From an uncultured virus (IMG/VR IMGVR_UViG_3300037357_000283) (lineage: Duplodnaviria; Heunggongvirae; Uroviricota; Caudoviricetes), in IMG/VR virus record IMGVR_UViG_3300037357_000283: 64,000 bases of DNA; one strand, given 5' to 3'. The notes under the pieces are model-generated. The model had not been told where the DNA came from and did no database searches. It worked only from the letters and a program-made list of their open reading frames with translations. The translations under genes and the position numbers were made by a program. The first letter of the stretch is position 1. Each line of letters begins with the position of its first letter. Below are positions 3,470 through 58,710 of the stretch, one piece after another.

Positions 3470-3503
3470 ACGGACTACCTATCCCAGGGTAATCTCCTTT
3501 GCT

Positions 3504-10442: not shown

Positions 10443-10520
10443 ATGGCACGCGATGCTCAACGTGATGGCCTCGTCGCCCGATCTTGCAAAGATCTTTCGG
10501 ATCAAGTAAGTTTTGTTTTT

Positions 10521-19125: not shown

Positions 19126-20464
19126 CAGGACTTCTGGGTTGAAAACCACGCCCTTTAGGGCGTCTTGACTTTTCTTACAAGGATAACTATATTCTTGTAA
19201 GTGAAAGCGAGATACACATTTCGGGTCTATCCGACTGGTCGCCAAGAGCGACAGCTTGCCAAAGAGTTTGGGTGCGCCAGGCACGCTTACAATTTCGCCT
19301 TGAACCTGCGAACGTCCAGCTTCAAAGACGGAATCACGATCAACTACAACGCCAGCAGCGCCGCGTGGACAAAACACCGAAACGATCCGACGTTTTCTTT
19401 CCTTAAAGAATCTTCCAGCGTTCCCCAGCAGCAGGCATTACGCCACCTTCAGACGGCGTTCAGCAACTTCTTTGCCAAGCGAACGCAGTATCCTAAGTTC
19501 CATTCCAAGCACGGGAAACAGAGTGCAACGTATACCGTCGCCGCGTTCGACTACGACGCCGCAAATAGGAATCTCAGCGTCGCCAAGATAGGTCGCCTCA
19601 ACGTCAAATGGAGCCGCGAGTTCACGAGTTCGCCAAGCACGATCACGATAACCAAGGATTGTGCCGGACGCTACTTCGTGAGTCTTTGCCTGGATGAACC
19701 AGCGAAGGCCGCACTTCCAAAGACGGGGAAGCAAGTCGGGATCGATCTTGGCATCGCGCGGCTGGCAACGCTCTCCACGGGCGAGAGAATAGCCAACCCG
19801 CGACACACGATGCGGCACGCTCGAAAGCTGACTCGATTGCAACGGGTTCTCTCCCGTCGCGTCAAGGGCAGCAATCGGTGGCGGCGTCAAAAGCTCCTGG
19901 TCGCAAAGCATCAGGCTCACATTGCCGATAGCCGCAAGGATTGTCTGAACAAGCTGACTACCGATCTTGTTCGACGGTTCGACGTGCTCGCCATCGAAGA
20001 CTTGAACGTGCGTGGCATGGTAAGGAACCATTGCCTTGCCAAGCACATTTCCTGTGCGAGCTTCGGCATGTTCCGTTCGATGCTGACATACAAGGCTGCG
20101 TGGTACGGGCGTGAACTGCGTGTTGCCGACAGGTTTTTCCCGAGTAGCAAGCGATGCTCCAACTGCGGCCACGTCCACGAAAAGATGCCGCTGGACGTGC
20201 GAGAGTTCACCTGTGAAGAATGTGGAACCGTTCACGACCGGGATGAAAACGCCGCCAAGAACATTTTGAAATTCGCGGGCGCAAGCTCGCTGTCTACCGC
20301 CGGACAGGCGGGAAGTAACGGACGTGGAGCGAGTTTAAGACCAAAGCGGGCTTCAGCCCGTTCTGGCAGTTCGCGTCGAAGCGTCAACCAACCTGCTCTG
20401 GCTCGTGGCACTTAGCATGGGCTACTCAGGAATCCCCGGCCTTTAGGCCGGTGGAGGATGTCAA
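19126..20464 (+). mobile_element. IS200/IS605-family (IS1341-like, no tnpA) element
   Basis: Inserted after TTTAT; subterminal hairpins ACGCCC-TTTA-GGGCGT and CCGGCC-TTTA-GGCCGG; ends TCAA; no target duplication. Confidence 0.85.
19201..20415 (+). CDS. tnpB: RNA-guided endonuclease TnpB
   Basis: FGCARHAYN, GIDLG, IEDLNV, PSSKRCSNCG zinc finger, DRDENAA; RuvC D/E/D intact. Confidence 0.95.
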   Translation: MKARYTFRVYPTGRQERQLAKEFGCARHAYNFALNLRTSSFKDGITINYNASSAAWTKHRNDPTFSFLKESSSVPQQQALRHLQTAFSNFFAKRTQYPKFHSKHGKQSATYTVAAFDYDAANRNLSVAKIGRLNVKWSREFTSSPSTITITKDCAGRYFVSLCLDEPAKAALPKTGKQVGIDLGIARLATLSTGERIANPRHTMRHARKLTRLQRVLSRRVKGSNRWRRQKLLVAKHQAHIADSRKDCLNKLTTDLVRRFDVLAIEDLNVRGMVRNHCLAKHISCASFGMFRSMLTYKAAWYGRELRVADRFFPSSKRCSNCGHVHEKMPLDVREFTCEECGTVHDRDENAAKNILKFAGASSLSTAGQAGSNGRGASLRPKRASARSGSSRRSVNQPALARGT

Positions 20465-20626
20465 TTGCGTTGGCATATTGCCGGCGGATTATCGGCACAC
20501 AGACATCAACTTTCAGTCAACTCGCTTCGCAGCTTCGGGACAGTCCGCTGGAGCAAGCGGAGGAGTGCTGATACACTGGGTGGCAGCACGGCTTGGATGC
20601 CAGTGGATTTCTAGCCAAGGATGGTC

Positions 20627-25300: not shown

Positions 25301-28153
25301 CTGCTGCGTTCGGTACATCGCGGGGCAGTCAGTGATGAGGCAGGGACCAGCTTTGTGCCGGCGCTGGCGCGGGGTACGGATTTTGGCTATGTCGGGCCAG
25401 TGCAGAAGATTGTGCCGCTGGACAAGGAAAGCGCCGATAAAATTGTTGGACAGCCGGCAACAGCACCAGCAGCACCACCAGCACCAGCAGCAGCACTAGC
25501 AGCACCAGCAGCACCAGCAGCACCAGCAGCACCAGCAGCAGCACCAGCAGCACCAGCAGCAGCACCAGCAGCGCCAGCAGCACTTGCTTCTTCGCTGCGA
25601 CACCCGATAACGAGGAAACCACCGACGACGCAGCCTGAGTTGTTGTACACCCCGCCGACGGCCCCGCCGACGGTCCTACCGGCGGTCCGTCACGCTGCGT
25701 TAAAGCTTCGAGACTGGTTGTTCCCCACCCCGCCGATGGACCCGACGGCCTACCCGCCCCCGCTATCGACGCCAGAAGTTTATCCGCCTGCACCAGCGGC
25801 AGGGACAACACGCATGGAAGCTCTGGGCCCGGAGATCGCGCATTATTACACAGGCACCGGTGGGCTTAATACAGCCATTCAGCACGCTCAGGCAGCCAGC
25901 AGCAGTGGGCATTATCCAACCCCGCATTTCACTGATTTGGATTACAGTCAAATCAATACGCAGCACCCGGTTACCTATAAAGCAAAGTTGCCTGGTGCTC
26001 TGGGTCTCACATATTCGCGGCCCGGGTTGAACCCTTTTTCGTCGATGGGATTCCTTCAATTAGCTCATACGGATATTGGGTTAGATAAGGACAAAAATAC
26101 GGGGTATTCCTTGAATCAGCAGGTGCAAAAGGTCAGAGAACACGAACTAACGCACGGTTGGCAGTCTTTGTCGTCTCCTGATATGTTGGACGCACGCATA
26201 TCGCGTGATCCATTGGGTGATACAGCACAATGGCTGAATAAGGTAAAGGCAAATCCAACTTCTGTGCTGAATTATTCAGAATGGGGTAATAATTTGACGG
26301 GTCAATATTTGACCAATCCGTCGGAGATTGATCCGCGTTTGGCAGCGTTCAAGCGTGAGTGGGCGAGGCAGAACAACGAATTGTTGGATACACCGCGCAA
26401 AGGAGTTAATGCTTTTTTGCATCCATCACCTTTTCATTACTTAGGTACAAATGATGATGCGGAACAGGGCCAAGACCTGTGGCGTGGCTATCAAGGGCAG
26501 CCGGCAGTCCAACAAGAGTTGATCAATCGCCTGATGAAAGTAGTGCAAAACCCTACGCAGGATTACCCGGGAGCAATAGCTAAAGAGGGAGAAGCCCCAC
26601 CTGATGTCACTATCGATCGACCAGCGGGGACCGTGAAAACTTGGCGCACATCTGCTGGTCCGGTGCAAAAGGTTTATCCGCTTGATAATGGTTACTTCAA
26701 CGGAATAACCAATCCACAGGATGGTGAAGGTGCTGATGTTTTTGTCGGGTCGGGAAATTTGCACGGCCGGTTCATGAAAGGAAAGACAGTTGGAACGGCC
26801 TGGCAACCCGATGAGCACAAGTGGTATCTTGGTCTAACCAAAGACGAGAAAAAGATGCTGTTCGATTGGTACAACGCGGATACGCCCAAACTGTTGCGGC
26901 AGCACAAGACACTGCCCGACGAGGCAGCGCTGCGTAAGGATGTTGCCCGCTTCTGTAAAGCCGCCGAGACTCCCACGGAGATGAATCCACCAGAGCTGCC
27001 CAAACCGCCCGATGCCCCCGAGATGTCCGAGGCTCCAGCGCCGCCAACCCAGACGCAGCCCAGCCTCTTAAACCGCGTCGCCCATATTCCCATCAACATC
27101 GCCGAGCACCCTCTGAGCCTTGACCCGGGCAACGCTCCCAAGAGTCTGGCTTCCGCCGGCTTGCTCGGCGTACAAAGTGCCCGGATCGCTAATGCTGGTC
27201 TGCGGCAGTTTGCCCGCCTGCCCGGCGTCAGTTCGCTACCCGGCGCCGGTGCTTTTGCGGAAGCGGCCCCCTGGCTGCATTCAGCACAGAAAGTGTTGCT
27301 GCCGAGTATTTCTTCGGGGATGACGATTCCAACCGGCACTGGCGCAGGTTTTAACGTCGGGCGTGCTTTGAGCGGTGCTGATAGTTTCGTGCAGCCAGTA
27401 TTAACCGCGGGCGGTGAAGCGCTAGGGTTACCCTCCTGGGGCATGCGAGCGCTGCGCGCGATCAGACCGGGTGGAGTCATTAGTGGTCTTGGGGCTGGGT
27501 TAGCTGGTCAAACCGTGCTGGATACCGGGCTCGGCGCCGCGAATGCAGCTTACCAGGGCGGCTGGCATCCCGAAGACCCGCGGAACTGGTTGACGGGTGG
27601 TTTTGATGTTGGGTCAGGTTATAACAAGATCACCGATAACCTGCTCCGGCCTGATGCGAGGACGAGCATGAGCTTTGACCCAATTACCCAAGGGTTGGCT
27701 CTGGGTAAGGGCATGGCCCGGACCAGCCGGGTTGATCCCAGCTTCTGGAAAGGGCCACTGGGTGATAGTGCCTTACCATCGCAGCAGTCACCAGAACAAG
27801 TAGCCCAAACTACAGCGCGGTTGAATCAAAGGCAGAATCCGTTGCAGGATTTCCAGTGGAAAGCCAATCCCGATGGTCGATCTGTTCTGGTAGACAAACA
27901 GACGGGGGTTGGCTTCCGGCCTAATCTCCTTGACTTTAATAGAAGGTTCGCCAGTCCGGGTGATGATCAAGGCAGGAGCATGAGTGCGGATATTCTGCGG
28001 CGGATGGCACAGCAGCGCCCCGACGAGTTCGCCCAGATGACAGACGACCCACGCTATGCTGCGTATAAGGCCAACGGGGTCGCCCCGCCGGCTGATGTTG
28101 TCCAGCAACAAGCGGCGCGACAGGCACAACTTAAGCAGCAGTTCGGTCTTTAA
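22376..28153 (+). CDS. RNA polymerase beta' C-terminal half with intein and long multidomain extension
   Basis: SGARG, bridge helix EGLTPWQYF...GTRRGVLD...STAKGGY, trigger loop AQGIGEP...KHQGG; later HELTH and pyrophosphatase-like GY...DGEGADVFV motifs. Confidence 0.85.
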   Translation: MLSGTMGQLAIRDRLPDDLQHYADRPLDKKALGQLMSELAQRYPEQYKDTAQSLLDIGRRSARESGGMSFGLASLARPAGAVVLRRQAEAKLGKLLDDDSLSDQDREGEILKLAAATQQKMQDTVFNESKAAGNPLAMQVVSGARGNKMTLNSLLGGDMLYTDQHNEPVPIPVFNSYSEGLTPWQYFAGAYGTRRGVLDLKLSTAKGGYFSKLLNNATHRLVVRGLDGPDPAPGDVRGMPVDTEDPDNEGSLLAQPAGKYPRNTRLTPEMLTELKRAGNDRLLVRSAITGGPRDGGLWARDVGLREDGKLPGRGSLPGMAGAQGIGEPITQALICLVRGTLVRMADWTTRPIENIRVGDKVLGADQFGRTFSVRVVRRYDNGLRDCVRTEFRVGCSTEFIELLSTPEHKVLAEVQVWPFDQLSRTVGQFAVGYRAKNPRTKFKAERSCGFIATGWREDPFALLLGLLLGDGCFTESVGGCHLSCFDPSLIDEISEYLRGLNLRAHLLAGQRGYYRISQIDETSTPQNKKSGKFCGSYRNPAMQMLDRFGLLGKYAHEKEIPREVYKWGNASVASLLGGLFITDGSVYVTEQNRKSSGSCHVCFGSTSKRMLEQVRELLDWRFGIHSTPANKQTKGRKHPFYSTTITHPRCVDSFLHAIPLFGCKRLRLPDLISKREENAVRRKLVNQDMFYRRAQEPIGLLPTFDLEVDHPDHLFVLANGLIVSNSSKHQGGVANSNRTIGGFDAINQLINVSDNFKGSATHSEADGMIGRILDAPAGGKYVMIGGKEHYVPVGLDLKVKTGDNIEAGDVISEGLPNPANIVKHKGIGEGRRYFVDTFRRAMDDAGVKGHRRNIEMLSRGLIDRVRLTGEIGDYAPDDLVPYQELEHNYKPRKDALETDLAGAAGKYLEKPVLHYSVGTKIRPSVMKDLRQFKVNQVTVHDNPPPFEAEMVRAPALLQSDPDWLTQSFGTGLKGSLLRSVHRGAVSDEAGTSFVPALARGTDFGYVGPVQKIVPLDKESADKIVGQPATAPAAPPAPAAALAAPAAPAAPAAPAAAPAAPAAAPAAPAALASSLRHPITRKPPTTQPELLYTPPTAPPTVLPAVRHAALKLRDWLFPTPPMDPTAYPPPLSTPEVYPPAPAAGTTRMEALGPEIAHYYTGTGGLNTAIQHAQAASSSGHYPTPHFTDLDYSQINTQHPVTYKAKLPGALGLTYSRPGLNPFSSMGFLQLAHTDIGLDKDKNTGYSLNQQVQKVREHELTHGWQSLSSPDMLDARISRDPLGDTAQWLNKVKANPTSVLNYSEWGNNLTGQYLTNPSEIDPRLAAFKREWARQNNELLDTPRKGVNAFLHPSPFHYLGTNDDAEQGQDLWRGYQGQPAVQQELINRLMKVVQNPTQDYPGAIAKEGEAPPDVTIDRPAGTVKTWRTSAGPVQKVYPLDNGYFNGITNPQDGEGADVFVGSGNLHGRFMKGKTVGTAWQPDEHKWYLGLTKDEKKMLFDWYNADTPKLLRQHKTLPDEAALRKDVARFCKAAETPTEMNPPELPKPPDAPEMSEAPAPPTQTQPSLLNRVAHIPINIAEHPLSLDPGNAPKSLASAGLLGVQSARIANAGLRQFARLPGVSSLPGAGAFAEAAPWLHSAQKVLLPSISSGMTIPTGTGAGFNVGRALSGADSFVQPVLTAGGEALGLPSWGMRALRAIRPGGVISGLGAGLAGQTVLDTGLGAANAAYQGGWHPEDPRNWLTGGFDVGSGYNKITDNLLRPDARTSMSFDPITQGLALGKGMARTSRVDPSFWKGPLGDSALPSQQSPEQVAQTTARLNQRQNPLQDFQWKANPDGRSVLVDKQTGVGFRPNLLDFNRRFASPGDDQGRSMSADILRRMAQQRPDEFAQMTDDPRYAAYKANGVAPPADVVQQQAARQAQLKQQFGL
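23378..24550 (+). mobile_element. Intein (391 aa) with LAGLIDADG homing endonuclease
   Basis: Starts CLVRGT, TPEHK block B, LLGLLLGDG and LLGGLFITDG motifs, ends FVLANGLIVSN followed by Ser; AT-richer than flanks. Confidence 0.9.
25459..25582 (+). repeat. GCACCAGCA-type microsatellite encoding a Pro/Ala linker
   Basis: Visible tandem 9-12 nt units. Confidence 0.9.
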
Positions 28154-32533: not shown

Positions 32534-34264
32534 ATGCCCGATGTGCTCAGCAAGGACGCAGAGCAGAAAATCATTACCGCCGTCAAGACCGCCATGGAGC
32601 TGGTCGACGACAAAGGTATGGTTCCCGATACCGCTATGGCTAAAATGGCCCGAGACTGCGGTTGGGGATCAGATATGATTGAATTTGCTGGCCGGGCTTA
32701 TAACACGGCGCGACAGGCAGCGCAGCGGCGGAGCAGTGATGAGGTTCTGGAGAAGTTTGCGACTTTTCCGCTGGTAAATCCCACCGCGGTGGTTGCCTCG
32801 GTTTTTCCCACCAAGGAAGCCGTGATCAAGACCGCTATGGCGATTCCCCTACCGGCCGCGGTTCTTCCAAATTTTCCTCGTTGGAACCAGCACCGGGCGC
32901 CGAATTTTTCGATCAAAATCGCCATGGCGCCGGTCAACCCGCCAGCATCACGGCCAACGGTCACGCAGACTTTCAATCAGTTCGATCGCTTCCGCGCTGA
33001 GGCGGGCGAGGCACGCCGCAAAGCCGCTGCAGCCCAGGACCGGTTAATCAACCAAGTCGGTGATCTCGAGGAGTATTTTCTCAAATACGCGGGCGATCGC
33101 CTTCCTTTTTCGCATGTTGAGATGGCGGCAACGGTTTATCACGGCGACGCGGTCAAGCCATTGTTGGAGCACGTCTACCGACAATGCCGGTTGAAAGAGG
33201 CCCGCTATAACCCAGCCAAGCCGCCTCTGACGGAGTATGTGGCAGGTGACCGGCCGTACACCTTGATTGCTGCTTGTGTCAAAACTGCGGCTGCAGTCGC
33301 CGATAATCGCGAGAGCGAGAAAACAGCGGTTGACCGCATGGAAGCTTATGCGATTAACGATCTGGCCCCGTTGGTTGCCGTGCCCAAGATCATCAAGGGG
33401 GCTGCGGACTCGATCATCCCCGATCCCGATAAGAAGTTCTGGGATCGCGACAGCGTTCGCGCGTTTCTACCACCCCTGCCGCGTGAAGTGATCAAGCAAG
33501 CGGCGGCCATTGAACCGTCTGCCTGGTCGCTGTTGGATGGGATCGACAAACAAGCGGGTGCCGAGGGTGGGGCCATGGCCGTTGGCGGCACGTTGCTGGC
33601 AGATAAATTGATGAGCCGGGACCCGGGTGGCGATGATCGGGTGAGCAACGCTTACCGGGAACTGGCCGACCCGCTGCATCAGTCGCAGCTGCAACAGATC
33701 CGCACTCAGGCGATGCTGGCTGATCTCATGAACGATGAAGTGATCGGGGACGGTAACCACAGCCCGGATGAGATTGCCCACGCTTTTAACGAGATCAGTC
33801 AGCTCGCTCCGCGCGCGGCGCAGAACCCGCTGGCGATTCGCGGCATGCTGCGGCGTTATCTCGAGCAGAATGGTAACATCGAAAATACCGAGATTCAGCA
33901 AATGGCGGGGACCGACCAAGCGCTTAAAGGGTTGCAAACGCCCCTGCCTGAACATCTTTCAGCGGTGCCGGCGCCGTCGGGTAATGCTCCGGTGCTGCCG
34001 TTTAATCCTTCGGACTTCTCCCCGACCCAAACTGTCGGTGGGCTGTATTCTTCTCTTCCCAAGCCTTCGGATCTGACTTCGGCGGTTTCCGGTGGGCTAT
34101 CGGCGGTTTCCGGTGGGCTATCGGCGGTGGCTGGTGGTCTAGGTCTAAAGGGGTCTAAAGAGAAGTGGCTCAAAGGCTCAAAGGGAAGTGACGGTAAGCA
34201 AGCAGCCAGCGTCAGTATTCTGGATCAAAGCATGGAGGATGCCGGTGACATCGCGCTCTTTTGA
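32534..34264 (+). CDS. Putative head protein
   Basis: 576 aa, about 12 KxA motifs, SAVSGGL tandem repeat. Confidence 0.6.
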   Translation: MPDVLSKDAEQKIITAVKTAMELVDDKGMVPDTAMAKMARDCGWGSDMIEFAGRAYNTARQAAQRRSSDEVLEKFATFPLVNPTAVVASVFPTKEAVIKTAMAIPLPAAVLPNFPRWNQHRAPNFSIKIAMAPVNPPASRPTVTQTFNQFDRFRAEAGEARRKAAAAQDRLINQVGDLEEYFLKYAGDRLPFSHVEMAATVYHGDAVKPLLEHVYRQCRLKEARYNPAKPPLTEYVAGDRPYTLIAACVKTAAAVADNRESEKTAVDRMEAYAINDLAPLVAVPKIIKGAADSIIPDPDKKFWDRDSVRAFLPPLPREVIKQAAAIEPSAWSLLDGIDKQAGAEGGAMAVGGTLLADKLMSRDPGGDDRVSNAYRELADPLHQSQLQQIRTQAMLADLMNDEVIGDGNHSPDEIAHAFNEISQLAPRAAQNPLAIRGMLRRYLEQNGNIENTEIQQMAGTDQALKGLQTPLPEHLSAVPAPSGNAPVLPFNPSDFSPTQTVGGLYSSLPKPSDLTSAVSGGLSAVSGGLSAVAGGLGLKGSKEKWLKGSKGSDGKQAASVSILDQSMEDAGDIALF

Positions 34265-36796: not shown

Positions 36797-38188
36797 ATGG
36801 CCACGAATACTCAAGTGCTCGGAAAGATCGAAGACTTCATCGCTTCGGTCCGTCCCCCTACTACCAAGCTTGCCAAAGTGCTCAGTGAGCCCGGCAGCCT
36901 TGGTGGTGAAACCCAACTGCCGGTTAACGATGTCGAAGATCATCTTCAGCCTGAGCACACCGGTGCTCGTGCAGCTGAAAATGAAAAAGACGTCAAAAAA
37001 GAGCTAGGTAAACCCTCGGTTGATGCGACACCGGAAGCCAAGGCCGCGGGTAGCGTCGGTAAGCCGGGGACGGCAACCAGTGATATTGTCAACGCCGGCA
37101 CACTGAAAGTGACCCCGACGGGTGAAGATCCCGAGCACGAAACCGCCAGCACCAAGCCCGGTAAGACAGACCCCGGTTCAACTCATCCCGCTCGCGCTGA
37201 CAACAAAGAGCTCGGCGGCGGCAAATATGCCTCGATGACTACGGAGCAGCTCCTGAACGCCTACAAGGAAGCCGCCGATGGTTTGTGCGCGGGCATTCTT
37301 AACGGGGTTGTCTCCAAGCAAGCAACTGCTTTGCCGGGGGCCGCAACCTTACCGGGGGCTTCAACTCTGCCGGCGACACCACCTGTGGCGGTTGCAACGG
37401 CTCCGGTATCACCCAAAATCGCTGCTCAGATCGGTTGGGACGTTGCGGCGATCCTCAACGGAACGCTGACGAAAGAGGGGGCTGATGCCATGGTGGCACA
37501 GAACCTCGAAAATATCATCAAGGGAGCCGAAGACGACGCCGATCGCGTTGCCGACTTCTATTCCGGTTTTTTCGTCCAAGGGGCTCCGCTGAACAAGGCC
37601 GGTGAATTTCCGCCTGGTGACGGTGGTAGCCCCAGCCACGCTGAGCATCATCACGCTTCCGCGGCTGGTGGTGATGACGGAATCAGTGGCGGCAGCGCCA
37701 GCGGTGGCGGCGCCGGTGGCGGTGCTGGCGGCGATGAACAAGTCATGGCCGAGATCGCCCAGATCTGTCAGCAGCTTGGCGTGACGCCCGAAGAGTTCCT
37801 CCAGGCGCTACAGGGCGGTGGCGCTGGTGCCGGTCCTGGCGGTCCTGGCGGGCCTCCTGGCCCCGGTGATGCCTCGGGTGGTCCTGGCGCTTTGCCGCCT
37901 GGCGGACCAGCCGGTGGGCCTCCTGGTATCGATCCCTCGGCTTTAGCCGGCCTTGGCGGCCCTGGTGGCCCCGGTGGTGGCCCTGGTGGTCCGCCTCCCG
38001 GTATGCCTCCCGGTATGCCTCCCGGTATGCCTCCCGGTATGCCTCCCGGTGGCCCACCTCCGGGCATGACCGCAACGGCCAGTGATCAGGCGCTGCAGAA
38101 GAAGCTCAGCCGCGATGAGGTTGTTAACTTCATCGCCGAGATCGCCAGTCGCTCCCGGGCTAAACAGGCCGCGGTAGTCAGGAAGTAG
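36797..38188 (+). CDS. Putative scaffolding/core protein
   Basis: Acidic and disordered, Gly/Pro tracts, follows the protease. Confidence 0.55.
   Translation: MATNTQVLGKIEDFIASVRPPTTKLAKVLSEPGSLGGETQLPVNDVEDHLQPEHTGARAAENEKDVKKELGKPSVDATPEAKAAGSVGKPGTATSDIVNAGTLKVTPTGEDPEHETASTKPGKTDPGSTHPARADNKELGGGKYASMTTEQLLNAYKEAADGLCAGILNGVVSKQATALPGAATLPGASTLPATPPVAVATAPVSPKIAAQIGWDVAAILNGTLTKEGADAMVAQNLENIIKGAEDDADRVADFYSGFFVQGAPLNKAGEFPPGDGGSPSHAEHHHASAAGGDDGISGGSASGGGAGGGAGGDEQVMAEIAQICQQLGVTPEEFLQALQGGGAGAGPGGPGGPPGPGDASGGPGALPPGGPAGGPPGIDPSALAGLGGPGGPGGGPGGPPPGMPPGMPPGMPPGMPPGGPPPGMTATASDQALQKKLSRDEVVNFIAEIASRSRAKQAAVVRK
37994..38050 (+). repeat. 12-nt tandem repeat CCTCCCGGTATG (PPGM)
   Basis: About 4.75 perfect units. 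Confidence 0.9.
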
Positions 38189-40370: not shown

Positions 40371-40443
40371 TTGACTTCAATTAGCCTATCGCATATAAAG
40401 TGAGCCGCCAACTTTGGCGGCTCACTTTGTTTTAGGAGATTTA

Positions 40444-41682
40444 ATGACCAAGACTCCTCGCGAATATGCTCAAGAACGTAATGCAAGAGGTTTGTGTTGT
40501 TCATGCGGTAATCAACATCTACCCGATAAAAGTCGATGCGCTGAGTGTGATGCGAAAGCTAAAGAAAAGTACAGATTAAAGAGAGGCCCGAAAAAAGTCG
40601 TCGAACGTTCAATACGTAAAGAACAGCTCGCTGCAGCCTCGAAGCGTTATTACGAAAATAAAAAGGCTCAAGGACTTTGTCCGACCGCTGGTTGTCATTT
40701 GCCAGCATCTGCAGATTCTATTTACTGTATGTTTCACCTTGAACAGCAACGAACACGTCAGACTCTAAAAGCAGCAGTGAAAGCTGTAGAGAAAACGAAA
40801 GAGATAAAGCAGCAGATTGAGGTCAGGCGATCTGCCGGGCTTTGCGTTGATTGTGAATCAACGGATCTGTTTAATAAATTACGTTGTCGTAATTGCGAGG
40901 CTAACTGGTTGGTTAGGGAGAATAATCTCACGCGATACGCCGCACGGTTGCGAGTTGGATTATGTCAACAATGTGACGCTGTTGTATCCGAGGGGCAAAA
41001 ATATTGTGAGGTTTGCACAGGTAAAGCTACCGAAAGACGCGAGCAACGTGCTGCTGCCGGTTTATGTGTTGTCTGTGGAACAATTCCACCTGCAGCAGGC
41101 AGACGACTTTGTCAGAGGTGTCTCGATCGCGTTAAAGAAGTCTACCGTGAACGGCAGGCCCAGGGGCTATGCGCTCAGTGTGGTAATACCGCAGTTGTAC
41201 ATGGTAACTCGCGATTCCTATGTGAATCTTGCTGCGTTCTTAGCCGTGCGCGTTATCGTAAACGTCACGCTGCGGCTCGCCGGCAGATCCTTGATGCCTA
41301 CGGTAATAAATGTGCCTGTTGTGGCGATCCACGAGAGTGGGGATTACAACTTGACCACGTAAACAATGACGGCAACGTGCATCGGCGACTTCTGGCGGGG
41401 GTTAACAAAAGTTCCGTTACTTATCGTGTATATTCGCAGGTGATTCGCGAGGGTTTTCCCAAGGACAAGTATCAGCTTCTTTGTAGCCAGTGCAACACCG
41501 GCAAAGCCCGTAACAACGGTGTCTGCCCTCACGTCCACGAACGTGCCGTTCTCGGTGGCCGCCTTGCCGTCACCCCTGAAGACTTCGCCGCCGTTGCCGC
41601 CGCTCTTGCCGCTTTGGAGCTCACCGGCGCCCCCGAAGACTTCGCCGGCGCCGTCCCTCCTGTTGCATCTCCCGTCTCCTAA
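40444..41682 (+). CDS. HNH endonuclease with tandem CxxC zinc-finger repeats
   Basis: CACCG...LQLDHVNNDG...LCSQCN; many upstream Cys pairs; AT-richer DNA; RBS AGGAG. Confidence 0.75.
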   Translation: MTKTPREYAQERNARGLCCSCGNQHLPDKSRCAECDAKAKEKYRLKRGPKKVVERSIRKEQLAAASKRYYENKKAQGLCPTAGCHLPASADSIYCMFHLEQQRTRQTLKAAVKAVEKTKEIKQQIEVRRSAGLCVDCESTDLFNKLRCRNCEANWLVRENNLTRYAARLRVGLCQQCDAVVSEGQKYCEVCTGKATERREQRAAAGLCVVCGTIPPAAGRRLCQRCLDRVKEVYRERQAQGLCAQCGNTAVVHGNSRFLCESCCVLSRARYRKRHAAARRQILDAYGNKCACCGDPREWGLQLDHVNNDGNVHRRLLAGVNKSSVTYRVYSQVIREGFPKDKYQLLCSQCNTGKARNNGVCPHVHERAVLGGRLAVTPEDFAAVAAALAALELTGAPEDFAGAVPPVASPVS

Positions 41683-41759
41683 CCGTTATACTCCACACCT
41701 TGGCACGTTCGGTACATCCTTACGTGCATGGCCGACGTGCTCCTACTTCTGGAATCCCT

Positions 41760-41918
41760 ATGGACAAATCACTTTTATTCTGGCTCGTATACGTCATTTC
41801 CGTCATCGTTACCGTGTTTTTGGGCTGGCCGCTCAACCGGACGAGTGGGCAATGGCTGGTAATTCTCCTGCTCCTCGGGATTCTCGGCTGGGGTGTGTTC
41901 GGGCCCGTGGTCAGGTGA
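41760..41918 (+). CDS. Small two-TM membrane protein
   Basis: 52 aa, two hydrophobic helices. Confidence 0.6.
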   Translation: MDKSLLFWLVYVISVIVTVFLGWPLNRTSGQWLVILLLLGILGWGVFGPVVR

Positions 41919-41932
41919 TTTGAAAAGTTTTT

Positions 41933-42109
41933 GGGCTACATCAAGGCCCGATGTGTCCCTTACCGGGACATAACCAGCTGGATAGCTGGCCTTGCCTGCT
42001 TTTTGGTGAGATACGTAGTGTCTCACCCCTGCAGGCACGGATTGATGGTGGTTGATCAACAGGCCGGTGATCAGCAGCCCGTCGCGCCCCTGCGGGTACG
42101 GATTGATGG
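41933..42109 (+). CRISPR. sgRNA-like cassette, copy 3, with repeat-32 nt spacer-repeat mini-array
   Basis: Scaffold to 42048, spacer 42049-42080, degenerate repeat 42081-42109. Confidence 0.65.
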
Positions 42110-42150
42110 TCCTGTTGCATCTCCCGTCTTCTAACCGTTATACTTCATCT

Positions 42151-42239
42151 GGTGGCCATCCATGGACGGTGGCCAAGTCACGGATGACGCCCAATCACGG
42201 ATGATGCGAAGCCGGCCCTATGCCCTGGGGCCGGCTTTT
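42151..42239 (+). ncRNA. CsrB/Rsm-like small RNA (three CANGGANG hairpins)
   Basis: TTGCAT-18-TATACT promoter; CATGGACG and CACGGATG x2 in stem-loops; terminator 42209-42239. Confidence 0.6.
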
Positions 42240-42256
42240 GTATTTCCACAAATACA
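42239..42256. promoter_or_regulatory. Palindrome TGTATTT-N4-AAATACA, copy 6
   Basis: Exact arms. Confidence 0.7.
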
Positions 42257-42361
42257 CCCTATGCGCCTGCCTAAATAAAAGACCGTTTTGCGTCACAATA
42301 GATGTAGGCCATCGTAGCTCTGCGTAGAGCTGGTGACCTGTTTTTAACCTGGAGAACAGCT

Positions 42362-43036
42362 ATGGAAGACACGAATAAGAATACCGGCGGCCGGAACACC
42401 GGCATCCAGAACACTGGCCACTGGAACGCCGGCAGCTGGAACACCGGCAGCCGGAACACCGGCGACTGGAACACCGGCGGCCGGAACACCGGCAGCCGGA
42501 ACACCGGCGACTGGAACACCGGCAGCCAGAACACCGGCTACCAGAACACCGGCGACTGGAACACCGGCGACCATAACACCGGCGACCAGAACACCGGCGA
42601 CTGGAACACCGGCGACCAGAACGCTGGCTTTTTCTGCACGGAAACTCCGTCGCTGAGTTTCTTCGATAAGCCAACTAATTTGACATGGGAGCAGGCAATT
42701 GAGCTGATACCTTATGTCGAATTGTCCATCGGCGCGGTATTTATCCATAGTGACGCCATGACGGATAAAGAGAAGCTCGCGCACCCAGAACATGAAGTCA
42801 TTGGTGGGTACCTGAAGAACTACAACTTAAAACTTCAGGAAGCCTTCCCGTTGGCGTGGAAGAAAATGTCGGATGAAGAAAAGGCCAAGTGGCTGGCGCT
42901 GCCTAATTTCAACGCCGAGAAGTTCCTGAAATGCACCGGTGTCGACGTCCGGCCGCAGAGCAAACCCAAGATAGCGACAGCCAAGGTGCGGTTGTCGGAT
43001 GGTACCGTGGTAGAGGGTGAGGTCGTGGCAGACTGA
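42362..43036 (+). CDS. NTGxx pentapeptide-repeat protein, paralog A
   Basis: 15-nt tandem units; near-identical to 47167-47790. Confidence 0.8.
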   Translation: MEDTNKNTGGRNTGIQNTGHWNAGSWNTGSRNTGDWNTGGRNTGSRNTGDWNTGSQNTGYQNTGDWNTGDHNTGDQNTGDWNTGDQNAGFFCTETPSLSFFDKPTNLTWEQAIELIPYVELSIGAVFIHSDAMTDKEKLAHPEHEVIGGYLKNYNLKLQEAFPLAWKKMSDEEKAKWLALPNFNAEKFLKCTGVDVRPQSKPKIATAKVRLSDGTVVEGEVVAD

Positions 43037-43092: not shown

Positions 43093-43566
43093 ATGACAAA
43101 TATTCAGTACAAGATTGGTGATGCCACTTTTCCTGATTCGCGCGGGAATAAGATCATCGTCCATGTTTGTAACGACGCTGGTGGTTGGGGGCGTGGTTTT
43201 GTTTTAGCGATTTCAAAACGGTGGCCTCAACCCGAAATGGCCTACCGCCGGTGGTACCGGGAACGGGAGCAAAATAGTTTTTGTCTCGGTGCGGTGCAAT
43301 TCGCTCGGGTTGAATCAGATATTTGGGTAGCCAACATGATCGGGCAGCATGGATTGGCGCGCGAAGCGGATAGGCCACCGATCCGATATGAAGCGGTCGA
43401 GGCTGCGTTGCTACAAGTTGCCGAGAAGGGAATTGAGCTTGCGGCGACCATTCATATGCCGCGGATCGGCTGCGGACTGGCAGGGGGAAAGTGGGGAAAA
43501 ATCGAGCCGATTATCTTGCGTACGTTGTGTGCTAAGGGTGTTGATGTGTCGGTCTACGATCTCTAA
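43093..43566 (+). CDS. Macro domain protein (ADP-ribose hydrolase-like)
   Basis: GDAT, HVCNDAGGWGRGF, MPRIGCGLAGG. Confidence 0.85.
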   Translation: MTNIQYKIGDATFPDSRGNKIIVHVCNDAGGWGRGFVLAISKRWPQPEMAYRRWYREREQNSFCLGAVQFARVESDIWVANMIGQHGLAREADRPPIRYEAVEAALLQVAEKGIELAATIHMPRIGCGLAGGKWGKIEPIILRTLCAKGVDVSVYDL

Positions 43567-45127: not shown

Positions 45128-45140
45128 GGTTAATGTTTTT

Positions 45141-45300
45141 GGGCTGCATCAAGGCCCGATGTGTCTCCTACAGAGACATAACCAGCTGGATAGCTGGCCT
45201 TGCCCGTTTTTGGTGAGATACGTAGTGTCTCACCCTCGTGGGCACGGATTGATGGTTCTTTATATACGGTCGTCTTGCCCCTGTGGGCACGGATTGATGG
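45141..45300 (+). CRISPR. sgRNA-like cassette, copy 4, with repeat-16 nt spacer-repeat mini-array
   Basis: Repeat 45227-45255, spacer 45256-45271, repeat 45272-45300. Confidence 0.7.
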
Positions 45301-45326: not shown

Positions 45327-45671
45327 ATGAAAAGTTCACTATATACGGTCGTGCAAAACACATCGGGCGTTGCCATGCGATTTGGGTTTCTGCCGCCACA
45401 TGGACAACTATTGACTCCCGGACAACTGTTCACCGTATTTGGTGACCTCCGTTCGGCGATTATGCGTGGTGCGCGGAACACCAGCCGGCGCGATCATAGT
45501 GCCCTGATTGCTGCTTTGGAGTCGGGGAAGCTGACGATCATCCACACGCCGTCACCGATCATGCGGGATCTGTTCTCTGGTCAGCCCAAGCTCATTCAGC
45601 TGTATAATGGCACACTGAGTCTGGTCAACCCTGGCTGGACAACCAGCACCGAGACCAGCATTCCGGCTTGA
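45327..45671 (+). CDS. Hypothetical (putative virion) protein
   Basis: 114-aa ORF; its 5' end matches the adjacent spacer. Confidence 0.65.
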   Translation: MKSSLYTVVQNTSGVAMRFGFLPPHGQLLTPGQLFTVFGDLRSAIMRGARNTSRRDHSALIAALESGKLTIIHTPSPIMRDLFSGQPKLIQLYNGTLSLVNPGWTTSTETSIPA

Positions 45672-47067: not shown

Positions 47068-47166
47068 TCTCTAATCCCTAAATAAAAGACCGTTTTGCGT
47101 CACAATAGATGTAGGCCATTGTAGCTCTGCGTAGAGCTGGTGACCTGTTTTTAACCTGGAGAACAG

Positions 47167-47790
47167 ATGGAAGACACGAATAAGAACACCGGCTACGGGG
47201 ACACCGGCAGCGGGAACACCGGCAGCTGGAACACCGGCAGCCGGAACACCGGCAGTTGGAACACCGGCCGCCAGAACACCGGCAGCCAGAACACCGGCCA
47301 CAGGAACACCGGCAGCAGCAACACCGGCGACAGGAACACCGGCAGCTGGAACACCGGCAGTTGGAACACCGGCAGCTGGAACACCGGGTTTTTCTGCACA
47401 GAAACTCCTTCGCCGAGCTTCTTCGATAAGCCAACTAATTTGACATGGGAGCAGGCAATTGAGCTGATACCTTATGTCGAATTGACCGTCGGCGCGGTAT
47501 TCGTCTTAAGTTATGAGATGACGGATAACGAGAAGCTCGCGCACCCAGAACACGCAACCATCGGCGGCTATCTGAAGAACTACAACTTAAAACTTCAGGA
47601 GGCCTTCCCGCTGGCTTGGCAGAAAATGTCGGATGAGAAAAAGGCCAAGTGGCTGTCGCTGCCCAACTTCGACGCCGAGAAATTCCTAAAGTGTACCGGC
47701 GTCGACGTCCGGCCGCAGAGCAAACCCAAGATGGCCAGGGTGCGGTTGCCGGATGGCACCGTGGCAGAGTGCGAGGTCGTAGCGGACTGA
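47167..47790 (+). CDS. NTGxx pentapeptide-repeat protein, paralog B
   Basis: Duplicate of 42362-43036 with fewer repeats. Confidence 0.8.
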   Translation: MEDTNKNTGYGDTGSGNTGSWNTGSRNTGSWNTGRQNTGSQNTGHRNTGSSNTGDRNTGSWNTGSWNTGSWNTGFFCTETPSPSFFDKPTNLTWEQAIELIPYVELTVGAVFVLSYEMTDNEKLAHPEHATIGGYLKNYNLKLQEAFPLAWQKMSDEKKAKWLSLPNFDAEKFLKCTGVDVRPQSKPKMARVRLPDGTVAECEVVAD

Positions 47791-47853
47791 TCAAACTAAA
47801 GCCGCCAGCCCTACGTGGGGCTGGCGGCGGAAGAAATAAGGGTGATTTTTACT

Positions 47854-47969
47854 GGGCTACATCAAGGCCCGATGTGTTCCTTACCGGGACATAACCGGCT
47901 GGATAGCTGGCCTTGCCTGCTTTTTGGTGAGATATTCAGTATCTCACCCCTGCGGGCACGGATTGATGG
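47854..47969 (+). ncRNA. sgRNA-like cassette, copy 5
   Basis: Full scaffold ending GGATTGATGG. Confidence 0.75.
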
Positions 47970-48941: not shown

Positions 48942-49496
48942 ATGAAAAGTACACCAGGGCAACGTTGGCAGGTTCTGTTGGGGGCGTTATTCGTACTGAC
49001 GGATCGCGGGATTCGACAGCTTCGCAATGGACTACAAGACCAGCGCGAGTATTTGGTTAAGCGGAAGTGCGATGTCCAGATGCACTTGTATAATCTCGAG
49101 ACGATTCGTCTCGATGCTTTGGATCTCGAGAAAGAGGTGCTGGCGGCGCGGCAGTTCAAGTTCATTTTTTTAGCGGAACTCAAAGTTCTGCTGGAGGAAA
49201 CGATTAAGGAATGCCAACAGATTCCGCTTAAAAGCGGGAAAATGCTGAATTATCTCTGTCAGCGATATCTCTTGGATATTGCCAAGCTGAAGGCACCGGC
49301 GACAGCAACGGATGTTCCAGCGGCAGTAGAAATTCCATCAATCCGTGCCCGCAGGGGTGAGACACTGAGTATCTCACAAAAAGCAGGCAAGGCCAGCTAT
49401 CCAGCTGGTTATGTCCCGGTAAGGGACACATCGGGCCTTGATGTAGCCCAAGAACAAAACTTATCTGATCCGCAAGATCTTTGCAAGATCGGGTGA
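48942..49496 (+). CDS. Hypothetical protein; 3' part reads through antisense cassette copy 6
   Basis: RBS GGAG. Confidence 0.5.
   Translation: MKSTPGQRWQVLLGALFVLTDRGIRQLRNGLQDQREYLVKRKCDVQMHLYNLETIRLDALDLEKEVLAARQFKFIFLAELKVLLEETIKECQQIPLKSGKMLNYLCQRYLLDIAKLKAPATATDVPAAVEIPSIRARRGETLSISQKAGKASYPAGYVPVRDTSGLDVAQEQNLSDPQDLCKIG
49335..49449 (-). ncRNA. sgRNA-like cassette, copy 6
   Basis: Reverse-complement copy with the same TTGCAA-17-TAAGTT promoter as copy 2. Confidence 0.75.
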
Positions 49497-49586
49497 CAAG
49501 GCCAGCGCATTTTCGAACGTAAAATCCATCGATTGCTACAACGGGTGGCTCGTGGAAGACAAATAACAGCCTAAAAGGAACACTCC

Positions 49587-52757: not shown

Positions 52758-52774
52758 CCCGAAGTTGTGTTTTT

Positions 52775-52890
52775 GGGCTACATCAAGGCCCGATGTGTCT
52801 CCTACAGAGACATAACCAGCTGGATAGCTGGCTTTGCCTGCTTTTTGGCGAGATATTCAGTGTCTCACCCCTGCGGGCGTGGATTGATGG
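52775..52890 (+). ncRNA. sgRNA-like cassette, copy 7
   Basis: Full scaffold followed by a hairpin and T-tract. Confidence 0.75.
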
Positions 52891-55875: not shown

Positions 55876-58710
55876 ATGTCCCAATACACTGTTCCTTCTG
55901 TTAACATCAGCCAAGACTTTCAGGAATCCCCCAACGTTGCAGCGCCTACTCTGAGCGCTTACGTCTGCGGCGGAGTCGTGCAAGCGATTCGTTTCGCTGA
56001 GCCAACTGAGCAGCCTTTGGGTGCCTTGGGTGCTTACAACCCGGATGTTCCAACCAGTTACGTCTGGCCCAATCGACAGGCAGGCGGCCTGGTTGATCCA
56101 ACCTCGGTCCAGCTGTGGGTGAATAACGCCATCCTCAACTATTACAGCGGGGCCGGCGCCGGGGTTAAAGTCATCAATGGCCTCAACAAGATCCGTATCG
56201 GGGCACTAAATCTTGCGACCAATGGAAGCTTTACCCGTAACGCTGTTTTTGGCGATCGCGATGTCGCCCCCGGTGATGTCGTGCAGGCGACTTTTGCGAC
56301 CTCCCCGCCGGTAACCGTATGGAGCACGGTGCAGAGCCTCCTTGGCGATGCCGTGGCTTCAGCGCTCGGCACAACCACTAAAGATAGCGGCAATAACGCG
56401 ACGACCGCCGCGGCGACTTCCTTCGGGCAGACGAGTGGTCCGATCAATGCGGTTGAAATTGCCTCCGCTTCGGCGACGGCGTACAACCCGTATCTGACCG
56501 GACGGGGTCATGAGACCTACACGATCATCGTGACCAGTTCCTCAATGAACGGGAATTTTCCTCTCGCCCGTCTGCAGGTCATCTCGGCGTCAGGGCTCGA
56601 TAACCAAGCTAGTGTTACGCCAGCAGCCCACGGCTCTCCAACGGCTATCGGTACGCTAGGGGCGACCGTAACTTTCACCGCTGGTCGCGGTTCGGGATAT
56701 TCCCTGGATGCCACCGAGGAAGGGCTCAGTCCCGATGATCTGCTCGCTGGGCAGACTTTCACGCTTACCGTAACCGCGACTTTCACCGCAATTGCGGCGC
56801 CAACAGTCAGTGGAACTTATACAGGTACGGATAGCACGACTTATATCGTTACTGTGTCCAAAGGAAACAAGTACGCGACTGCCCCGGCACAGATCACGGT
56901 GACGACCATTGATGGTTCAGATATCAGTGGTCCGACCAACGTTACCGCAGCGGCAACGCCCGTAGTGATTGGTAATTTTGGCGTCAGTATTACTTTTGCC
57001 GGCCTGGGTTTGGCTTTGGGGGATCGCTTTTATGTGCCTGTGACGGCGGCAGGCACAGGCCAGTTGCGGACCTTGGTGCTCGGCAACACGATTCCGTCGT
57101 CCATCCCTGATGGAACGGTGGCCGACATCTCGTTGTATATTCTTGAACCAACGGCACAGATCAATATCGATCGCCTGGAAGCGCCGCCTCTGACCAATTA
57201 CGCGAGCAGCACTACGCAGATCACAGTCCCGACCGGGGTTACTTTGTATACTCCCAGCTGGACGGTCGATGGGATTCCTGAACCATTGCCGCTGGCTAGT
57301 GGTCCCGGCTATGGCAATTTGTTTGTTCAATACACCGCCTGGTTGCCTAACGTCTCGGGAACGGTCAGCACGCCCGCGGATCTGGCTAATCTCCCTGGGC
57401 CACTTGATCCGATTAACCCTCTTAAGTGGGCTTTGGCGCAGGCCCTGACCAACTCCAACGGTGTGCCGGTTTACTATCAAAGCGTCACCGATCCAACGAA
57501 TGTCGATGATTGGCAGGCTGTGCTCAGTATTCTGGAGACCACGGATGGCCCCTACGGCCTTGTACCGTTGACGCACAACACGACCGTACTCGATCTGTTT
57601 GAAGCTTATATCAACACAGAGTCTTCATCCGCCAACAACCGCTGGTGTGTTTTGTGGGCTTCGTTATCTGGCTTGCCTACCGTGCCGATTGTCTCTGCCG
57701 GTAGTACGGTGCCGGGCTATCTCGCGGCAACGACCAGCGACGGTAACGTGGCTCTGGCTACGGTCGTTAATAATCCCAACGAAGTCGGCACGAATTACAC
57801 GATGGTGACAGTGACCTCCGGGAACGCCGTGTTTACCACCAACAACGTGCAGGCCGGGGATATTCTGCGCATCAATTTTACGACCGACGGTTTTGGTGAT
57901 GTTGGCTACTCTGAATATGTCGTTGATTCGGTGCTGACGCAGGAAACCCTTATTCTGCTGGCTGGCCCGGCTGCGGCCATTAATGTCGCCAGCAAGATCG
58001 AAGTCTGGCGGAATCTCTCGGCCGACGCTGAAGCCGCTGCCATCGGGCAGGTCGCTGCCGCTTATGCTAATCGCCGTGTCCGTGCCGTCTGGCCCGATAC
58101 GATCAATACCGGGACAACGGTCATGGATGGTTTCCATCTCTGCGCTGCTCTGGCGGGGCTTCGCTCGGGTGTCTTGCCGCAGCAAGGTCTTACCCGCGTG
58201 CCGGTACAGGGCTTCACGTCGGTTCCGCGGACAACGCAGCACTTTAACCGGTCGCAGTTGGACGTGATGGCCGGTAGTGGGGTCTGGATTGTCACCCAGA
58301 ACGCGGCGGGAACGATCTACAACCGCCACGCGGTAACCACCGGGCCTTATTCGGATATCAACCAGCGCGAGGAAATGGTTACCAGCAACGTTGACAGCAT
58401 TTGTCAGCAGCTTCTGGAGCTGTTTAACCCTTATATTGGGTTGACCAACGTCACGGCCAATCTGATCGGCGTATTGCGGTTGGATATCCTAGCCCTCAGT
58501 GCGGTATTGACCAACGCCAGCACGACGCCGTTGCTGGGTGGGCAATTGACCAGTGATATCGTTATCTTGAGCCTGCAGCAGAGCCCGCTGCAGGCGGATC
58601 ACATTCAGTTCAGCGCCCAATTACCGCTGCCGGCGCCTTTCAATAACGCAGACGTCGATCTATTAATCAGTACCCAGCTGAACACGACGGCGACAGTTGC
58701 AGCGACGTAA
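55876..58710 (+). CDS. Tail sheath protein
   Basis: 944 aa; YTVPSVNISQ start, CAALAGLR and C-terminal PAPFNNADV; precedes the tube gene. Confidence 0.8.
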   Translation: MSQYTVPSVNISQDFQESPNVAAPTLSAYVCGGVVQAIRFAEPTEQPLGALGAYNPDVPTSYVWPNRQAGGLVDPTSVQLWVNNAILNYYSGAGAGVKVINGLNKIRIGALNLATNGSFTRNAVFGDRDVAPGDVVQATFATSPPVTVWSTVQSLLGDAVASALGTTTKDSGNNATTAAATSFGQTSGPINAVEIASASATAYNPYLTGRGHETYTIIVTSSSMNGNFPLARLQVISASGLDNQASVTPAAHGSPTAIGTLGATVTFTAGRGSGYSLDATEEGLSPDDLLAGQTFTLTVTATFTAIAAPTVSGTYTGTDSTTYIVTVSKGNKYATAPAQITVTTIDGSDISGPTNVTAAATPVVIGNFGVSITFAGLGLALGDRFYVPVTAAGTGQLRTLVLGNTIPSSIPDGTVADISLYILEPTAQINIDRLEAPPLTNYASSTTQITVPTGVTLYTPSWTVDGIPEPLPLASGPGYGNLFVQYTAWLPNVSGTVSTPADLANLPGPLDPINPLKWALAQALTNSNGVPVYYQSVTDPTNVDDWQAVLSILETTDGPYGLVPLTHNTTVLDLFEAYINTESSSANNRWCVLWASLSGLPTVPIVSAGSTVPGYLAATTSDGNVALATVVNNPNEVGTNYTMVTVTSGNAVFTTNNVQAGDILRINFTTDGFGDVGYSEYVVDSVLTQETLILLAGPAAAINVASKIEVWRNLSADAEAAAIGQVAAAYANRRVRAVWPDTINTGTTVMDGFHLCAALAGLRSGVLPQQGLTRVPVQGFTSVPRTTQHFNRSQLDVMAGSGVWIVTQNAAGTIYNRHAVTTGPYSDINQREEMVTSNVDSICQQLLELFNPYIGLTNVTANLIGVLRLDILALSAVLTNASTTPLLGGQLTSDIVILSLQQSPLQADHIQFSAQLPLPAPFNNADVDLLISTQLNTTATVAAT

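Follow-up and report, generated by a model that had tools for sequence, protein, structure and literature searches.

Analysis of the window (the whole 64,000-nt stretch of DNA considered here) reveals seven dispersed copies of a folded RNA module of about 117 nt, in which a conserved 88-nt leader pairs with a 29-nt unit that resembles a type I-C CRISPR repeat. In three of the copies a further unit follows, and the unit-spacer-unit loci are read here as true mini-arrays built on a CRISPR-like repeat. The explanation we prefer, held at about even confidence, is that modules and mini-arrays together are orphan leader-repeat CRISPR modules that use type I Cas machinery in trans; it draws its support from the units, the modules, the covarying fold, the likeness to type I-C repeats, the regular spacing of 31-32 nt in metagenome contigs, and the diverged terminal units. 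The analysis suggests that the phage feeds guide or decoy RNAs into CRISPR machinery encoded elsewhere.

The window has a GC content of 55.7%, with every long ORF on the + strand, and family scans identified glycosyltransferases in addition to the genes listed in Table 1. The closest phage relatives of the RNA polymerase are only ~30% identical to it, the tail sheath is common to 14 IMG/VR contigs (~64-235 kb) at 41-53% identity, and words from the window are present in peat metagenome runs (a share of 0.93 in run X1 and 0.44 in run X2). The tail sheath, the distance of the phage relatives, and the presence in peat runs therefore identify the window as part of a large, poorly sampled peat myovirus.

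The unit starts with GTC and finishes with GATGG (its end also being written GGATTGATGG). A pattern for its 23-nt core (CCCCTGCGGGCACGGATTGATGG), allowed up to three mismatches, occurs at 10 places in the window and at none in 100 shuffles; 10 copies of the 29-nt unit stand against an expectation of 0 by chance. A repeat finder returned six copies of a ~129-nt element and nine copies of its final 31 nt, and a covariance model (R1) built from six module copies found seven ~117-nt modules in the window (E 1e-27 to 1e-29), the 3′ end of each being one unit. The remaining three units stand downstream of the first units of copies 2, 3, and 4, and these have no leader. Second units running from GTC to GATGG after 3, 32, and 16 nt had been predicted for these copies, and the same coordinates were recovered here; the predicted exactness of the unit boundaries was also upheld, with metagenome contigs breaking at 42048 and 42020 as well. 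Copy 7, on the minus strand, falls outside the copy numbering of the original prediction. Four of the seven modules carry one unit alone, as lone repeats outside an array. In two of the three arrays the second unit departs from the first at 4 of 29 positions, as is seen in old terminal repeats, and in copies 3 and 4 the changes coincide exactly with the positions at which the first unit is paired to the leader. A coding reading of the module was rejected on single-base indels among the copies and on the differing frames of the overlapping ORFs. Rfam gave no match at gathering level over the whole window and only chance-level rows around the locus at E values up to 10.

Table 1. Positions of the modules, units, and neighboring features in the window
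Feature	Coordinates	Strand	Basis and remarks
Module copy 1, solitary unit	3503-3618	+	R1
Ribonucleotide reductase	8133-10442	+	Family scan
Module copy 2	10520-10636	+	R1
Copy-2 second unit	10640-10668	+	Same sequence as first unit; 3-nt gap (GCT)
RNA polymerase beta/beta′ fused gene	14014-18453	+	Family scan; 1479-aa ORF comprising beta and the N-terminal part of beta′
TnpB gene	19201-20415	+	Family scan; 404 aa
Second beta′ part with LAGLIDADG intein	22376-28153	+	Remainder of beta′, 4 kb downstream of the fused gene; 1925-aa ORF, Hint/LAGLIDADG
38-nt direct repeat, first copy	41658-41695	+	End of HNH gene; TTGCAT-N18-TATACT, promoter-like
52-aa two-helix membrane ORF	41760-41918	+	Predicted
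Module copy 3	41932-42048	+	R1, 143 bits, E 1e-29; 88-nt structured leader and first unit 42020-42048
Copy-3 spacer, 32 nt	42049-42080	+	
Copy-3 second unit	42081-42109	+	GTCGCGCC... variant; 8 nt left free by its own hairpin
38-nt direct repeat, second copy	42110-42147	+	Begins one base after unit 2, in spacer position
Pentapeptide-repeat paralogs, two	42362-43036 and 47167-47790	+	Upstream and downstream flanks in common
Macro-domain protein	43093-43566	+	Matches DarG (PADLOC, 2e-8); also PHROG 'phosphatase' family
Module copy 4	45140-45255	+	R1
Copy-4 inter-unit stretch, 16 nt	45256-45271	+	
Copy-4 second unit	45272-45300	+	GTCTTGCC... variant; own hairpin -9.6 kcal/mol
Module copy 5, solitary unit	47853-47969	+	R1
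Module copy 7	49335-49450	-	R1; within + ORF 48942-49496
Module copy 6, solitary unit	52774-52890	+	R1
Tail sheath	55876-58710	+	944-aa protein that clusters with phage tail sheaths

The module is a structured RNA. RNAalifold and pair counts over the seven copies give five helices: three simple hairpins, followed by a long two-part helix that joins the anti-repeat to the first unit. In this helix CCUUGCCUGC and GGUGAGAUAC are the partners of the two unit halves, and there is a U5/CCU internal loop. Standard pairs fill 99.6% of 271 pair cells, three pairs are altered on both sides, and the covariation score was reached by none of 500 shuffles; controls in which the partner strand was slid were 26-45% paired. 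The two anti-repeat helices (9 and 10 pairs) are kept at 100% and 98.6%, and the first contains a pair altered on both sides. Conservation extends to each of the three upstream hairpins, and in two of these it includes compensatory changes. The variants seen most often among the metagenome copies, at 41958-41966 and 41997, are the same compensatory changes. Because the G-U pairs fit the + strand only, this is the strand of the RNA. The long helix stops 8 nt short of the end of the unit, and AUUGAUGG is left single-stranded.

The capacity of the unit to pair with the anti-repeat, as predicted earlier, is confirmed by the energies: in the module at 41932 the duplex reaches -28.7 kcal/mol with unit 1 and -21.2 kcal/mol with unit 2. 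Across the copies, duplexes of first unit and anti-repeat lie between -25 and -29 kcal/mol, and those of the second units of copies 3 and 4 at about -21. First units fold weakly when alone (-3 to -6 kcal/mol); the own hairpins of the second units of copies 3 and 4 amount to -7.6 and -9.6 kcal/mol, and those of their first units to -3.1 and -5.9 kcal/mol. The leader RNA thus pairs with the first repeat, in the manner of leader-repeat hairpins, and less well with the second units of copies 3 and 4; its anti-repeat is complementary to the repeat, in the manner of tracrRNAs and single guides.

Contigs from four peat metagenome runs were compared with positions 40400-42360 of the window, with joint sides of 21-32 nt and a likeness threshold of 85%, at which some of the joints may belong to other organisms. 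Three runs, each from a different study, yielded contigs that run from unit 1 through the spacer and unit 2 into the flank, and the array at 41933-42109 is not an assembly artifact: record 7 of X1, a run that may be the source sample, covers 41984-42299 without a difference, record 14 of X2 covers 41979-42299 with 4 differences, and record 30 of X4 covers 42029-42248 with 0 differences. Many contigs depart from the reference exactly at 41927-41932, 42048, and 42080, which confirms the boundaries of module and unit. Summed contig depth over the module is 663-754 in X1, against ~9 for the flanks, and 100-136 in X2, against ~3; depth is not copy number, and the module is clearly far more frequent in the source samples than any single locus.

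The original prediction had described nascent arrays, in which only the repeat part of a scaffold was duplicated and irregular spacers pointed to recombination rather than adaptation. The data lead to a different description. Two 29-nt units with fixed boundaries stand at each of three loci in the window, which places them among direct-repeat arrays (at least two repeats of 23-50 nt). One of the three window spacers, that of copy 3, has the regular length of 32 nt, the others having 3 and 16 nt. Among the contig joints listed there are at least 10 distinct unit-to-unit spacers, and seven of 10 have 31-32 nt (six of 32 nt and one of 31-32, with the others at 26, 18, and 9 nt); nine further entries exist. 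Unique spacers that are mostly 32 nt long, between repeats of 29 nt, are what characterizes integrase-built CRISPR arrays, and in view of the contig joints and the diverged second units we take these loci to be true mini-arrays with a CRISPR-like repeat. In one contig of X4 a distance of 32 nt separates two units, and the next 253 nt contain no third one. The depths of one joint (10.4, 3.2, and 2.3 in X1, X2, and X4) are close to those of the phage flanks (9.2, 3.2, and 2.9), which fits a location in the same genome without proving it. For copy 3, recombination with a longer array is possible.

Targets of the spacers were sought in the window and in phage records. A 13/18 match of spacer 3 to the small gene upstream, which had been remarked on earlier, is no better than chance: the copy-3 spacer reaches at most 20/32 anywhere in the window, and the maxima over 20 shuffles were 19-21. 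The same spacer has no significant match in phage records (best E 0.3) or in the loci examined, its 20-mer has no match in IMG/VR viral contigs, and none of eight spacers taken from contigs is matched in the window with three or fewer mismatches.

The kinship of the unit was assessed with a strict degenerate pattern (19 fixed bases) scanned against one genome each for 185,579 species. Six matches were obtained, five of them unrelated and outside arrays; the sixth is a CRISPR array in a Clostridiales MAG (locus L029), with a consensus that differs from the unit. This sole array adjoins genes for Cas3c, Cas5c, Cas8c, Cas7c, Cas4c, and Cas1c, several of them split, in agreement with the earlier suggestion that the unit resembles GTC...GGATTGAAAC repeats of type I-C. 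Only 1, 5, and 28 of 1000 shuffles did better than the phage units when these were aligned to another copy of the Clostridiales array, a comparison that is partly circular because the array was found by a pattern derived from the unit. With type I-C repeats the phage unit has three elements in common, a 5′ GTC.C.CCCC, GGG in the center, and GGATTGA, and these agree in order and strand. It differs in its length (29 nt against 30-33, about 32), in its end (GATGG against AAT/AAC, GAAAC), and in that the stem halves of the phage first units do not pair together. The ~32-nt length, own stem-loop, and GGATTGAAAC/T 3′ end of an I-C repeat are thus lacking, and judged by its sequence the unit is best called type I-C-like, not a canonical I-C repeat. 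No array of the exact unit was found in the 185,579 species genomes by the strict 19-base scan or in IMG/VR.

Genes for a Cas partner were sought in the window and among relatives. PADLOC recognized no Cas protein among the 67 window ORFs other than TnpB (as Cas12f-like), its other matches being a macro domain, a weak restriction-enzyme match, and an intein; the reported absence of cas1 and cas2 therefore stands for the window, which is all that the claim covers. Genes after copy 6 have no sequence matches in the PDB and include the tail sheath, not Cascade. A Cas-like identity had been considered for them and was rejected, the 944-aa protein belonging to the tail sheath group. Five of the 14 sheath-related records (three of them complete) are without Cas1 and Cas7c, and in these five R1 finds no module, its sole match having E 0.33 and 15 bits. 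Nothing similar emerged when four 22-kb loci of related phages were scanned for repeats, and phage records searched with blastn and megablast contained no match. For an 18-mer of the leader there is no match in viral contigs, and of its five matches in metagenome contigs R1 confirms none; a 16-mer of the unit matches 14 viral loci, again with none confirmed by R1, and the degenerate unit pattern has no match in viral contigs. Since no cas gene lies in the window and neither Cas1 nor Cas7c was found in the five relatives, the Cas partner, if there is one, belongs to the host or is encoded elsewhere in the phage genome.

If the modules are orphan leader-repeat CRISPR modules, the 29-nt units would be CRISPR repeats of a type I-C-like kind, and the two-part anti-repeat of the 88-nt leader would fold onto the first repeat, whose last 8 nt would stay unpaired. 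Extra units would be ordinary downstream repeats, not recent duplicates of one part of a guide scaffold, and would have been acquired when spacers were integrated in the CRISPR manner or when the modules recombined with longer arrays that share the repeat. The modules may be transcribed behind phage genes or from promoters of their own, and type I Cas proteins, supplied by the host or encoded by the phage outside the window, would cut the RNA near the hairpin base, ~8 nt before the end of the unit. The product would be a crRNA-like RNA, with the 32-nt spacer as its putative guide in copy 3 and flanking sequence in that role in solitary copies. Several points count against this reading. A first repeat folded into the leader helix is expected to hinder recognition of the Cas5/Cas6 type, and the three conserved hairpins bear more likeness to a scaffold for protein binding than to an ordinary leader. 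Four of the seven copies have no spacer, and two of the three window arrays have gaps of 3 and 16 nt. The unit itself has a GATGG end, a length of 29 nt, and a weak hairpin of its own, and the strict 19-base scan found an array of the exact unit in no genome.

A smaller but real possibility is that the modules are RNA anti-CRISPRs (Racr-like decoys), in which solitary modules made in bulk would soak up repeat-binding Cas proteins of the host and the few mini-arrays would be by-products of recombination with arrays. Solitary units in four of seven copies would suit such a role, as would the multi-copy state of the module in the samples, seen in its depth in X1 and X2. Terminator hairpins lie downstream of copy 1 (after ~29 nt) and of copy 6 (5 nt past the unit), the latter arrangement being in keeping with a decoy. 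Copies 3-7 are located in an accessory region with a macro-domain protein (DarG-like, 2e-8) and pentapeptide proteins; the macro-domain protein is a candidate counter-defense enzyme that would remove ADP-ribose. Viral solitary repeats, one of them of type I-C, are proven inhibitors according to the report on Racr (PMC10651486), and the lone phage repeats described there resemble those seen here, some of them standing behind promoter-like sequence and in a candidate anti-defense region. The mimicry of a host repeat that defines Racr is missing, however, with no identical or near-identical repeat found by the strict scan of the 185,579 species genomes, and here the unit, a close copy of no repeat found, is masked within a 117-nt structure. 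The own hairpin of the first unit gives way to pairing with the leader, and regular 32-nt spacers at phage-like depth suggest use as arrays. The module also occurs in at least seven copies per 64 kb, against one or few in the known cases as far as that account goes.

Viral CRISPR mini-arrays are the other known form of phage-borne repeats. According to a review (PMC11656645) they hold one or two spacers and are without cas genes, their repeats are identical to those of the host, and their spacers match related viruses. Copy 3, with its canonical 32-nt spacer and diverged terminal repeat, is comparable to the one-spacer repeat-spacer-repeat form in phages with no cas gene nearby. The present loci differ from these in that no host array or target was found and in that the arrays are attached to a conserved, folded 88-nt leader in dispersed copies.

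We regard as doubtful a bolder construction, in which the 117-nt module would be a self-contained single-guide gene, spread across a jumbo phage genome as numerous copies, some of which grow arrays by the addition of repeat-spacer units, or in which the copies with a guide position matching adjacent phage DNA would be phage-borne, Cas-dependent switches for small toxic genes. The single-guide version would have a tracr-like scaffold permanently fused to a class 1-looking repeat and served by an effector yet to be seen; were it true, the module would be a living intermediate between fixed guides of the omega-RNA type and CRISPR arrays.

It is unlikely that the module is a natural single-guide RNA, with tracrRNA-like hairpins and an anti-repeat fused to a crRNA repeat and with a 3′ guide for a Cas12-like or TnpB-like nuclease, which was the frame of the original prediction. 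In type V single guides the order is structured 5′ part, anti-repeat, loop, repeat, and 3′ guide, as in the module, and in type V tracrRNAs and single guides and in TnpB omega RNA alike a structured 5′ part and an anti-repeat pairing with the repeat are followed by variable sequence. The strong, co-varying pairing in cis (-25 to -29 kcal/mol), the conservation of the three upstream hairpins, and the presence of a TnpB/Cas12f-like gene in the window point in the same direction. Repeat and spacer lengths of 29 and 32 nt are class 1-like, however, and the nuclease fails to appear. The TnpB gene belongs to a TnpB-only insertion sequence (19140-20470; OrfB_IS605 with Cas12f1-like TNB and HTH domains, 404 aa), set among genes between the two RNA polymerase genes. 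The element has a hairpin-bearing, promoter-like left end after TTGAC and a conserved-looking 3′ region ending in TCAAT, and it is an ordinary insertion sequence with its own RNA end. R1 has no match at this 3′ region, and as candidates for the omega RNA of TnpB the nearest modules are ~8.5 kb (copy 2, whose array ends at 10668) and ~21.5 kb (copy 3) away. The only nearby candidate for a cognate class 2 nuclease is this TnpB, which has its own IS ends, and no other RuvC or HNH guide-nuclease candidate was found among the 67 ORFs. The claim that the module is the scaffold of a class 2 or TnpB-like effector accordingly finds no effector in the window. Copy 6 has no room for a guide, and an Rfam match is wanting. 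Type V guides and omega RNAs are thus unlike the module in three respects: a cognate nuclease is absent from the window, TnpB has an RNA end of its own, and the sizes are class 1-like.

The flanks of the copies bear on a further possibility. The 38-nt direct repeats on either side of copy 3 are identical at 36 of 38 positions (95%), and the first of them takes in the last 25 nt of the 422-aa HNH-like gene (40414-41682); the 414-nt block between them (41696-42109) contains copy 3 and the 52-aa membrane ORF, a 92%-like version of which occurs in a different upstream context in record 3 of X1. The 32 nt that follow unit 2 of copy 3 match 41658-41689 at 31 of 32 positions, a stretch 65 nt ahead of the membrane ORF. 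In copy 4, 14 of the 16 nt between the units agree with 45335-45350, within the 5′ end of the following gene (at 45327), the next best match in the window being 11/16. Copies 2 and 7 have ~45 nt of upstream flank in common, with a TTGCAA-N17-TAAGTT motif, and copy 1 is preceded at ~40 nt by a promoter-like motif that also stands ahead of both pentapeptide genes. The flanks lend themselves to two readings, as scars left by cassette shuffling or as guides directed at promoters nearby.

The latter reading, which we consider improbable, has the modules make regulatory crRNA-like RNAs of the CreA/CreR/Cracr kind, whose guides match promoters or starts of genes nearby and would lead a Cas complex to repress neighbors such as the 52-aa membrane protein. 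The match of the copy-3 sequence to the promoter-like 41658-41689 and that of the copy-4 gap to a gene start are what it would predict. Short pseudo-spacers matching promoters define such RNAs in a preprint (10.1101/2024.10.29.618823), whose mini-arrays, short or odd spacers, and guides matching a nearby promoter or gene start are similar to what is seen here. The 5′ flanks of the two targets (CCC and AAG) nevertheless have no PAM in common, the homology at copy 3 extends over 38 nt and so exceeds a spacer, like a recombination scar, copy 2 has no such match, and plain duplication accounts for both cases. Unlike the RNAs of the preprint, those considered here match adjacent DNA of the phage itself, no PAM is shared, and the matches may be scars left by recombination. 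Least probable of all, and very unlikely in our view, is a non-CRISPR function as a mobile or recombination-prone structured cassette (terminator, RNA stabilizer, or shuffling site) descended from a repeat, for although the copies lie at gene ends, often right after a T-run, with one inverted within an ORF, and although flanks are duplicated over 38 and 16 nt and the small ORF with its module recurs in a second context, such a cassette leaves unexplained the unit-32 nt-unit joints with unique spacers and exact 29-nt boundaries.

The pairing of leader and repeat has a parallel in the leader-repeat hairpins of types II-A and VI (PMC13187072), in which RNA just 5′ of the array likewise pairs with the first repeat only. 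In these systems the guide precedes the repeat, the repeats measure 36 nt, and the hairpin serves to block an extraneous crRNA; the phage repeat differs in its class 1-like look and the phage leader in its three further conserved hairpins. Among the papers listed by full-text literature searches, none describes a dispersed leader-plus-repeat module like this one, and a class 1-looking repeat with a pairing, co-varying 88-nt leader scattered over a phage genome is combined in none of the systems compared.

Lone repeats and mini-arrays in phages are known, usually as a bare repeat copied from the host; here the repeat is welded to a conserved 88-nt fold. Also distinctive are the at least seven copies over 64 kb, the far higher frequency in the source metagenomes, and the occurrence of some regular 32-nt spacers without a cas gene in the window. 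If the modules feed Cas proteins in trans, they would represent a new viral layout of guides or decoys, with one promoter-proximal folded leader per guide, and a natural test, outside types II and VI, of the control of crRNA production by leader-repeat pairing. If a dedicated effector exists instead, the architecture of the guide would be new.

Several other features of the window were recorded. The + ORF 48942-49496 reads through the inverted copy 7, and its final ~50 codons are probably the reverse complement of the module, which suggests an insertion into the 3′ end of the gene. The flank common to copies 2 and 7 (CCCGATCTTGCAAAGATCTT.CGGATCA..TAAGTTTTGTT; 10470-10519 and 49451-49500 on the minus strand) may be a longer form of the module or a promoter of its own. 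A promoter-like motif (CCTAAATAAAAG..GTTTTG.G.CA.AATA.ATG) is located at 3431-3466, 42269-42359, and 47076-47166, and its two copies at the pentapeptide genes are 99% identical over 90 nt. The protein encoded at 40414-41682 (422 aa) contains ~7 zinc-ribbon modules of the form GLC..C and, at its C terminus, an HNH-like motif (DHVNNDGNVH), with no Pfam HNH match at E 0.01; two 422-aa ORFs considered as paralogs were rejected as such on comparison. An ARAGORN tRNA-Arg on the minus strand (42450-42536), inside the first pentapeptide gene, is probably a false call in 15-nt repeats. Coding tandem repeats have periods of 63 nt (1-126), 21 nt (34079-34141), and 12 nt (37988-38050), the last encoding a Gly-Met-Pro-Pro run within a 463-aa protein. 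Finally, the palindrome TGTATTTnnnnAAATACA is present in seven copies (5040, 11832, 22345, 30809, 38192, 42239, and 54979), mostly 10-50 nt ahead of gene starts and often right behind a terminator, and is a candidate phage promoter or operator.
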